DNA of 63,988 bases, counting the filler, from Chlamydiia bacterium (GTDB lineage: Bacteria > Chlamydiota > Chlamydiia > Chlamydiales > FEN-1388), in assembly GCA_903848235.1 (NCBI GenBank). It is 6 parts of 6 records of this genome, joined end to end, with 100 filler letters (N's around TTAATTAATTAA, not from the genome) between each part and the next. Parts side by side here need not be neighbours in the genome. Positions count along the whole stretch, not along the records: positions 1 to 20,409 come from CAINFV010000024.1; 5 more parts are not named here. One strand, given 5' to 3'. The notes under the pieces are model-generated. The model worked only from the letters and a program-made list of their open reading frames with translations, had not been told where the DNA came from and ran no database searches. This document shows, in pieces, positions 6,901-9,900 of this stretch. How positions within the stretch are numbered: the first letter of the stretch is position 1; the number at the start of each line of letters is the position of its first letter. The position numbers and the translations under genes are program-made.

Positions 6901-9900
6901 TTGCAGAGCCTGCGCTGCTTCTTTTTGAAGCAACTTTTGGTCAATTTCTCTGGCCAGATAAGGTCGCTATTATTCGACGATTTTTACAAGGAGATGTAGA
7001 AGCACAGGGCAGAGTTATTGAATTAATTATGGCCTCAGGGAAGACGGCTGTTCTCCTTCCACTCGTCAGCTACCTTGTGGCACAACGAGGAATGGTTTCT
7101 GTTGTCATCCTCACTGACCAACTCTTTCCTTCTATGGCTCCGGTTCTTGCTCAGACACTTCAGAAATCTTTCGGAGTTCCGGTCTTTTCATGGAAATTAC
7201 AAGACGACAAGCAGCTTGACATCTCCTCACTGGCAGCTATCCATAGAGGCGTTGAAAGTACATTTGCAAAGCATGGGGTTATCATCCTGCGACCTAAGGA
7301 TTACACCGGGCTTTTTCTGCAATTTCTCTCTACCATGTCACAAGGGAGCAGAGAAGCTATACCGGACGAACAATCTCTGAGCGCTGTTCGTGAGAAACAG
7401 TTAGAAGATGAACTATGTGCGCTTTTTTCTCCGAAACAACCCGTTCGAGAAGCTATGCCCATTGGAACTGACACACGACGGGAACAGCAAGAGCTGTATC
7501 AAGCCATTTTCGGTTTGATGGTCACCCATGGAGCCTTTTTGTTTGATGAAGTTGATACAACATGGGACGTCCTAAGAGAACACCTTCTCTCTGTCTCCCC
7601 TCTTGTTCCAGTTGATGCCATCACGCGAAAGTTCCTCGTCTTTCTGTACAAAAACCTCCCTCAGAAAGTCATAACAACGAAAGAAGCGTTTTTATCAGAA
7701 GTTGCACCGAGTTTGGTAGAAAGGGTTATTGAATCCCTGATGACCTCTGATGAAGAGAAGATTCGAAAAATGACTGCTGTACACAGAGGCATAATCTCTG
7801 ACTTTTTGCATGGCATTGGAACAAAAGAATCTCTAGAACCTCTTCCTCCAATCCTTCGCGAATCAGTCAGTGTTGTCAGAGCTCAAATTCGGGATATTCT
7901 TCCAGAGACATGCACGAAGACATTCGGCGTCCATTACGGAGAGGCAACTGTAGTCGCTGGAGAACAGCTCGTACCCTATGCTATTCCGTATGAAAATGGG
8001 ATTCCTACCAAAGCTCGATTCGGCCACGACCTCGAGGAAGTACATTATACAATGCAAATGTTTCTTCACTTAACTACCGAACAGCTCACGCCGTATGTGG
8101 TCCATATTCTAAAAGATCTTCAATTCCAAGTTCGTCAGGAGTTGCTCGAAACACCGTCCATTCGGCTTGAAGCGACCGAGGGCGCTCGGTGGCTGAACTC
8201 CTATATCGACAATCAGAAAATTGTCTCACAGGCCCTTGCTCATCCAGAAAGTTGTGGAAGTGACATTGCGCTGTTTCTCCAGCATAACACCCCCTTCCTC
8301 ATTGACTTCATCGATCGGTTTTTCATTTCCAAAATTCAACGGCCATCTTCATTTCTCCATGTAACAACCCAGATCTACGCCCTTCTGGCAAATGTCGTAC
8401 GAGCGTTTTCTGGGACAACCTGGAACAAGCAGACCTACCCTGTTCTGGCAGAGCCATCGGTAGAATCGGTTGGTAAGACAATTTCCATTTTAGCACGGGA
8501 GCCTGACCAGACCGTCCTGGTCGTGAGAGATCCCGATGAAATTGTATTGCCAGGTTGGGGGATCATCGATGTAGGCGGGATGTTTACAGAAAGAAATTCG
8601 CAGGAAATTGCAGAGCGTATTTTAGATAAAAGTGATTCTGAAAGTATACAAGGGGTCGTTTTTTACGATAAAGATAAATGTCCCAAAGTGTTACACCGAA
8701 AAACATACCCATACAAGTTGAAGAATCGGGAATTTGCCAACGTCGAAGGCCACAGATTCGATTCCGAAAAAACAGGCCCGCTATTCGCTATAGGGGCTGT
8801 TTTTTCGGAGTCGAAGATGGGGTTTTCGACTAAGGCAAAAACCGATTCTTCAACTTGTTTGGGTATATCCGCCGACTTCGAAAACGTCTGTCTGTATGAG
8901 AAAGAGACCCTCTCTCCAGAGGTGCTTACCGCCTATTGGTCACAGCCATTTACCACTGGCTCTGATCTCAAAATTCAGTCAACAGCTCACTGTCTTGTCT
9001 GTATCAGCAAGGACACAATCCTTCGTGACGTCCTCCAAGGTGTCTGGCGACCGAGAAAATTCGGACGAGGCCAACACGAGAGGTTTGTTGTGACCGAACA
9101 GACTCAAGAGATCATCTGCAGAACGCTCCATCTTCCAGAGGGCACCAATCTCTGTTCCTACCATATTATTGCCTATACTCTGTTAATCCAGATTGATCGT
9201 CAGGCATCGGATAATTGCCGCTCTCTTCGACACACAGCCAGCTCTATTCTTGAACGGGGGTTTATCCATGCTCTCCTTGTTTCAGATGCTTCATCTCTTG
9301 ACGAACTTTATGAATCTTGTTCTGAGTTATTTTCACAGGAACAGCCACAGAGTCTGTATGATCGCTACGCGACAACAACCAAAGAGCTTTTCTCGGATGA
9401 GGCTATTGAGGCTCTTATAACAAAAACTCTCTACTCCAAGCCTTGCGCATACTTATGCGAAAAGGGTTTTCTTGTCAGGAAACAAGTTGAAACCGAGCTC
9501 AGTGCCTTGAGAAATCGAAGGATTTCTCTTCCAGAGAGAATACACGAGGTAATACCGGAGATCCGAACCAAAATTCAGGTTCAGACCCAAACCCAGGTTC
9601 AAAAGCAAACGCAAACTCGAACCCAACAGGAGGTCTCCGAGGTACAATGGACTCCAACCTATCGGTATTCAATTGTATGCGATTTTAAGGATATACTCTG
9701 CACGGGGAAGTTCACACCACAAGCTCTTTTTCAGAATATTCAATCCGTGCAGCGCAACTCGATTTCTGGGGCATGCATCCGCCTGCATGACCTGTTTTCC
9801 GCAGAAGAGGCAACAAAGGAATTCGCTGATCTTTTTCCCTCCCACGTTGGCACAACTGTCAATCTTCACCAAGCCTTTCAGCAAGGCTTTACCCTCATGT

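Follow-up and report, generated by a model that had tools for sequence, protein, structure and literature searches.

A palindromic element inserted in frame in a chlamydial gene, and a candidate IS630 partner

A palindromic insertion without a gene of its own adds 54 codons to a long open reading frame of a Chlamydiia bacterium. The insertion, of a type flanked by a duplicated TA, is likely a MITE moved in trans by an IS630 transposase, the 54 codons being tolerated as a predicted loop. An earlier note on this DNA had proposed a chlamydial MITE that adds peptide segments to proteins. In the DNA and in predicted proteins, this proposal is supported by an empty-site ortholog, by further copies, and by the absence of a match to the described families searched.

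The insertion and its host gene

The window, meaning the whole stretch of 63,988 nucleotides that was analysed, consists of six joined contigs, of which the host contig covers only 1-20409. The genome of origin (G000) comprises 2.35 Mb in 284 contigs and is 93% complete. The features are as follows.

906-10484, plus strand: host ORF of 3,192 aa with DUF3638 at aa 1994-2154 (ORF and domain search)
6198-6260, plus strand: 3' remnant of a second copy, 63 nt, 21 codons, aa 1765-1785 (same frame, same gene)
8704-8705, plus strand: left target dinucleotide position, reading CA (TA in 134 of 151 elements)
8706-8867, plus strand: inserted segment, core and right TA (translation, fold, empty-site ortholog, contig divergence points)
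8706-8729, plus strand: left terminal inverted repeat, about 24 bp (fold, end matches)
8842-8865, minus strand: right terminal inverted repeat, resembling the ends of a chlamydial IS630 clade (fold, end comparison)
21001-21162, no strand assigned: full copy of sister family B, intergenic; inner core common, outer arms different; net 160 bp, so not 3n
21161-21182, plus strand: isolated end fragment, intergenic, abutting the family-B element (20/21 match over 21161-21181)
44534-44550, minus strand: isolated end fragment, intergenic (17/17 match)
55751-55788, plus strand: isolated 38-bp end fragment, intergenic (36/38 match)

A complete 162-nt hairpin filling exactly 54 codons without breaking the ORF had been described previously, and both translation and fold bear this out. 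Positions 8706-8867 read in frame as YPYKLKNREF...DSSTCLGI, which corresponds to host aa 2601-2654. The segment folds as a single long hairpin of -62.7 kcal/mol (as DNA), compared with -22.0 +/- 3.2 for shuffled sequences (z -12.8), and 0 of 200 shuffles were equally stable. The element proper is the 160-bp palindromic core at 8706-8865, which together with the right TA at 8866-8867 makes up the 54 codons. On the left side, CA is the commonest deviation from TA (8 of 151 elements). Because of this CA, and because the ortholog P0222 has Ala there, the window copy itself gives no evidence of a TA duplication.

P0222 (3,154 aa, 74% identical) also provides the empty site that the earlier note had proposed to look for, as it lacks exactly the 54 inserted residues in the protein alignment. 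The anchor-to-anchor distance is 41-55 aa in 31 of 31 more distant homologs vs 103 in the host. Contigs carrying other copies depart from the reference at 8701-8705 and 8867-8868. At the level of sequence, 8706-8867 is a genuine MITE insertion in frame, and its ortholog is empty at exactly this site.

The same gene contains the remnant at 6198-6260, which is absent from the earlier note. At this position P0222 has 15 other residues, the last one being Leu. The remnant would have arisen by insertion and a subsequent in-frame deletion that removed the 5' part of the element and adjacent host codons. The window gene would display two stages together: one 54-aa insert is intact, and the other copy is cut down to a remnant that replaces host linker residues.

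Mapping of the insert on a predicted structure, likewise proposed earlier, places it in a low-confidence loop next to a well-predicted core. The AlphaFold model of the host region (32 sequences) has a mean pLDDT of 77.5, with the insert at model residues 201-254. Residues 209-263 have a pLDDT below 50 and hardly any secondary structure; the strands on either side belong to blocks with values above 90. Any insert that lacks alignment support would be modelled with low pLDDT, so the loop indicates compatibility only. The region round the insert weakly resembles SecA/SF2-helicase folds in Foldseek (best E 0.047), and this search returned nothing at E 0.001.

Other features of the gene and its surroundings may be mentioned. 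Host aa about 355-470 contain His, Asn and Gln..Cys motifs that may follow the order seen in permuted papain-like (CE-clan-type) proteases. Both G000 and G003 have an expanded family of DUF3638 giant proteins. At 10486-12843 (minus strand), a gene convergent with that of the host protein encodes a 785-aa protein with two tyrosine-phosphatase domains, which is eukaryote-like and possibly secreted.

Copies, target site and reading frames

When up to 4 mismatches are allowed, the 22-mer end has 59 occurrences in G000, whereas three shuffled 22-mers gave 0, 0 and 0 hits. G000 harbours 14 full or near-full copies, a count that leaves out the false pair C24:6104-6258. They are 82-92% identical to the window copy, and 13 of them are located outside long ORFs. 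A diverged copy lies at the beginning of a 355-aa frame on C37. In G000, 74% of TA sites fall in ORFs of at least 150 aa vs only 1 of the 14 paired copies in a long ORF, which indicates that most genic insertions are lost or harmful. Further copies occur in other genomes of the order. In G205, searched by pattern, 11 of 46 full copies are genic, so that the majority is intergenic in both genomes for which the count suggested by the earlier note was made. All 11 are 3n in length, as are 25 of the 35 non-genic copies (among 100 of 117 end matches listed).

The ends of the element had been reported to recur at 21161, 44531 and 55751. These intergenic matches are real (20/21, 17/17 and 36/38), but they are fragments and not whole copies. 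The full family-B copy at 21001-21162 had not been recorded before. Family B has about 13 full or near-full copies in G000, with 0 inside genes; one of them overlaps the beginning of a stop-to-stop frame on C108. Chimeras of family B with other ends are present on C96 and C231. Many isolated end fragments are located just upstream of start codons (G000 C44, C55, C96, C138, C149, C150 and others).

Of 151 non-redundant paired elements, 123 have a TA at each end; the set comes from all loci collected, many of them by peptide profile and hence with a bias toward open, 3n copies. The net length is divisible by 3 in 108 of the 136 elements of at least 140 nt. The length variants of 162, 174, 204, 219, 231 and 306 bp are divisible by 3 without exception, and those that are not 3n (209 bp in G205; family B, 160 bp) were seen outside genes only. 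Six copies in G390 are near-identical at unrelated sites.

As far as the sequences tell, the residues flanking the inserts fit TA targeting. If the TA occupies codon positions 2-3, Leu, Ile or Val is expected before YPN-frame inserts, and this prediction held: L/I/V (NTA codons) precedes the insert in 107 of 116 listed cases (background 22%). A second set of YPN-frame inserts has L/I/V in 67 of 73. With the TA across a codon boundary, an ANN-coded residue is expected after IPKQ-frame inserts and no L/I/V bias before them. This also held, with L/I/V before the insert in 3 of 22 and an ANN-codon residue after it in 19 of 22 (background 36%). A single fixed frame was considered and rejected, since reverse-YPN and IPKQ frames also occur in real genes. 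Altogether four frame/orientation combinations are used, and several unrelated interiors are found beneath one end sequence.

More complex arrangements were observed as well. Composites of 306 bp (102 codons) with extra internal hairpins stay in frame, for example in DapF (L074, L097, L116). Double, tandem and nested inserts (P0001, P0012, P0076, G319:C95:13337-13660) include a MurD with two inserts and a subfamily within a subfamily.

The exact 26-base end was detected at 52 loci among 185,579 species genomes, of which 47 are titled chlamydial, 3 Verrucomicrobiae, 2 'bacterium' and 0 Rickettsia (record titles as given, which for five bins read Chlamydia trachomatis). At least 91 of 400 genomes and at least 63 of 216 genera of the order match the peptide profile, with at most 14 candidates scored per genome. 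In the YPN frame, 134 proteins of 180-2,000 aa were recovered among 7,999 scored candidates. The 120 hosts listed form 100 clusters, with independent sites in MurD, MurB, TrmH and RlmD. Of their inserts, 61 are internal and 13 are near the C-terminus; the other 46 lie no more than 25 aa from the N-terminus, a place where the gene call itself may be wrong. Among these N-terminal inserts, 27 are within 7 residues of the start and 19 are at a distance of 8-24, many of the latter following a hydrophobic stretch that looks like a signal peptide. The reverse-orientation profile yielded 79 proteins. Among the 78 examined, 42 have at least 180 aa, and 24 of these carry the insert internally, including RecB; the 36 shorter ones are probably spurious ORFs. 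The IPKQ-frame profile found 23 proteins, seven of them named Ca. Neptunochlamydia vexilliferae.

The hosts CarB, PheT, MurD, DapB, DapF, TsaD, MutL, TruA and TyrRS pass NCBIfam equivalog cut-offs, and LpxK passes an NCBIfam cut-off. CarB is interrupted cleanly at E. coli residues 288-290. In G205 (96% complete) the sole LpxK match carries the insert, which is absent from 34 of 34 other LpxK, and it keeps all 20 invariant columns. In the LpxK model, 278 of 386 residues have a pLDDT of at least 90, and the insert is predicted as a loop between two strands. P0058, named SecA in its source, falls below all SecA cut-offs and was not taken as a housekeeping SecA. For annotation, the practical consequence is that inserts split domains, create false short ORFs and cause false similarity among unrelated chlamydial proteins.

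IS630 as candidate mover and the alternatives

The IS630 remnants of G205 and G313 have terminal sequences that resemble the end of the element. This IS630 clade is present in 44 of 400 genomes of the order. Scored by the best right-end match per locus, 16 of 30 IS630 loci match the element at 19 or more of 30 positions, a level reached by 20 of 3,000 random windows (0.7%). The other 14 loci remain below 19/30, and IS and MITE ends agree at about 60-80% of positions. Complete IS630 elements with both ends are found at L251 (1,209 bp) and L256 (1,119 bp), and the L251 protein is an IS630 transposase (NF033545, above cut-off). The element occurs in 23 of the 44 genomes with the clade vs 68 of the 356 without it, in a sample whose related genomes are not independent; 68 of 91 element-bearing genomes have no match to the clade. 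The chlamydial element itself has the features of an IS630 MITE: TA duplication, IS630-like ends, short length, multiple copies and no transposase. Two IS630 remnants have been hit by palindromes in their turn, one by a copy of the window element's family (L244) and one by a different 175-bp palindrome with TAGA..TCTA-type ends (G313, L245:1637-1809).

The nearest named relatives of the clade are on a Protochlamydia plasmid (65%) and on Vibrio and Enterobacter plasmids (44%), and their ends are similar. Compared by eye, the IS630 ends of L345:179-1279 (Vibrio campbellii plasmid NZ_CP026320.1) and L346 (Enterobacter plasmid) agree at 19/26 and 18/26 positions with the ERIC consensus ends in PMC2759123. 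ERIC is reported from the families of Vibrio and Enterobacter (PMC10969869), and a 2007 account calls its transfer mechanism unresolved (PMC2759123). The IS630 clade is a candidate mover of ERIC, as judged from these ends. A literature search found no paper linking the two, and the link may be known.

In the mechanism proposed, the 24-bp ends would be recognised by an IS630 transposase, which would place the 160-bp core in a TA and duplicate this TA, giving a net gain of 162 bp. Whichever way round the element lies, a TA at codon positions 2-3 would produce the YPNxLKN...DSSxCLGI frame. The IPKQ...LFGY frame would come from a TA that straddles two codons, and the third frame would mostly meet a stop within the end repeat. 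Most genic insertions would be purged, and the few in loops, linkers or termini would persist. These would be translated; their sequence would then drift, with selection on the peptide not in evidence, and in-frame deletion could shorten them, which may have happened at 6198-6260.

One alternative is that the inserts inactivate their hosts, whose genes would then be pseudogenes of recent origin with a frame still open by chance. The scarcity of genic copies in G000 relative to genic TA sites does suggest that most such insertions are harmful, but the sole LpxK of the nearly complete G205 keeps its invariant residues, and the nine equivalog hosts listed above still score above their cut-offs. 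Moreover, the genic copy in G000 keeps both length and frame, whereas only 3 of 13 non-genic paired copies read to the normal end. In G205, stop codons number 0 in 9 genic copies and 5 in 14 non-genic copies. Loss of function is accordingly a poor account of the set, and these hosts probably retain their function. A selected mini-domain, either a tag or an interaction loop, spread or kept for its function, is still harder to reconcile with the data and appears very unlikely. Its end motifs are conserved across families of the order, and one Fic site is occupied in three genomes, with the P0081 and P0091 inserts agreeing at 41/54 residues in hosts that are 67% identical. These two may share one old insertion; the alternative is that one TA was used repeatedly. 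However, the ratio of non-synonymous to synonymous changes in G205 is 113:23 for the 9 genic copies and 168:30 for the 14 non-genic ones (p 0.76, with a neutral site ratio of 3.3), as counted in 25 copies against the majority sequence with subfamilies mixed. The frame is preserved in genic copies and the sequence is not, and selection on the peptide was not seen. Reading in different frames yields unrelated peptides, the conserved peptide ends correspond to DNA repeats, and the majority of copies is intergenic.

It is similarly improbable that the element moves by another transposase or by an RNA/hairpin route, as left open for RPE, with its IS630-like ends as ancestral leftovers. No match to the IS630 clade was found in G000 (93% complete) or G390 (88%), where the copies look youngest, no transposase remnant is visible in the interior, and end-to-end pairing exceeds what a transposase needs. 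Multi-copy IS are, however, often missing from fragmented assemblies, and the strict TA duplication, the TA-TAC start of both IS and element and their co-occurrence argue for IS630. A misjoined repeat, finally, has a negligible probability. Although the assembly is fragmented and no single contig in four DNA runs spans the whole stretch, the left junction is bridged by a contig of another study (8575-8752) with zero differences and the right junction is crossed by another contig (8838-9021). The frame is also exact relative to P0222, and the pattern recurs in more than 100 other proteins. The joined, empty form of the site was not found in the contigs of these four runs, a type of data that cannot show absence.

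Beyond the preferred reading of a tolerated IS630 MITE, 3n length and open frame might be the element's own survival strategy, selected for landing in essential genes of gene-dense genomes without killing the cell. This extension is tentative, and we lean against it. If true, the element would be like an intein that never splices. Insertion and in-frame trimming would keep supplying the whole order with linker sequence that is new, and the driver, an IS630 clade that can be identified, may also move ERIC.

Comparison with known systems

No such element was known to the earlier note from this phylum, and in this respect the searches agree with it. A literature search, which left subscription journals mostly outside, found no description of the chlamydial family; the MITE catalogue of PMC11602168 (183,232 genomes) might list it unnamed. 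A search of the element against Rfam returned miRNA-type hairpin matches only, all below the gathering threshold. NCBIfam holds RPE models, and a scan of the 54-aa peptide, in the used frame only, found no NCBIfam family at E 10, which sets RPE apart at the level of peptide models, not of DNA. Against 20,395 E. coli records, blastn of the element gave nothing at E 1, nor was there a match in plasmids.

ERIC termini are of the type TATACCC...GGGTATA (sequence in PMC2759123 Table 1a), and the ERIC-type ends noted earlier agree with them; compared by eye, the element agrees with one ERIC end at 15 of its first 20 bases. The likeness is confined to the ends at the sequence level. The chlamydial element shares TA duplication, a long hairpin and some in-frame fusions with ERIC/RU-1. 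ERIC has a length of 127 bp, compared with 164 bp for the chlamydial element including both TA. RUP of Streptococcus pneumoniae is also a TA-targeting MITE tied to an IS630 element, IS630-Spn1, through its ends (PMC2229807, PMC3049150). In contrast to the open and mostly 3n frames of the chlamydial family, RUP has stops in six frames and is intergenic or disruptive. IS630 elements proper (NF033545) share ends and TA target with the chlamydial element, which differs in having no transposase gene and a wholly palindromic interior.

The closest functional parallel are the RPE of Rickettsia, hairpin elements of about 100-150 bp that occur in frame in unrelated conserved proteins (Ogata et al. 2000, 2002 per PMC10969869, PMC2229807). 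In R. bellii, 53 of 526 are genic (PMC1458961). One RPE insert is translated and its gmk host enzyme is active (Abergel 2006 per PMC2229807), and the target duplication of RPE is listed as '?' (PMC2229807 Table 1). Both systems comprise hairpin elements of obligate intracellular bacteria, with in-frame insertion in unrelated conserved proteins, empty-site orthologs and a minority of genic copies (11/46 in G205 and 1/14 in G000 for the chlamydial element, whose 160-bp core is slightly longer). Unlike RPE, the chlamydial element has a strict TA duplication and a candidate autonomous IS630 partner. It is spread over an order and has several unrelated interiors in its four frame/orientation combinations. 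Judged by its sequence, the element works like RPE and has ERIC-type ends, and it belongs to neither family. In-frame repeats are not unique to Rickettsia, as intragenic BRE inserts in Bordetella (PMC3184786) and the archaeal cases cited in PMC2229807 show. The reviews used here treat protein-coding palindromes as a speciality of Rickettsia with scattered cases elsewhere and describe the mover as not known. The chlamydial family presents the same behaviour in a second group of intracellular bacteria. As it brings a candidate transposase, a TA as its defined target and frames that can be predicted, both the jump and the tolerance of inserts are testable in E. coli.
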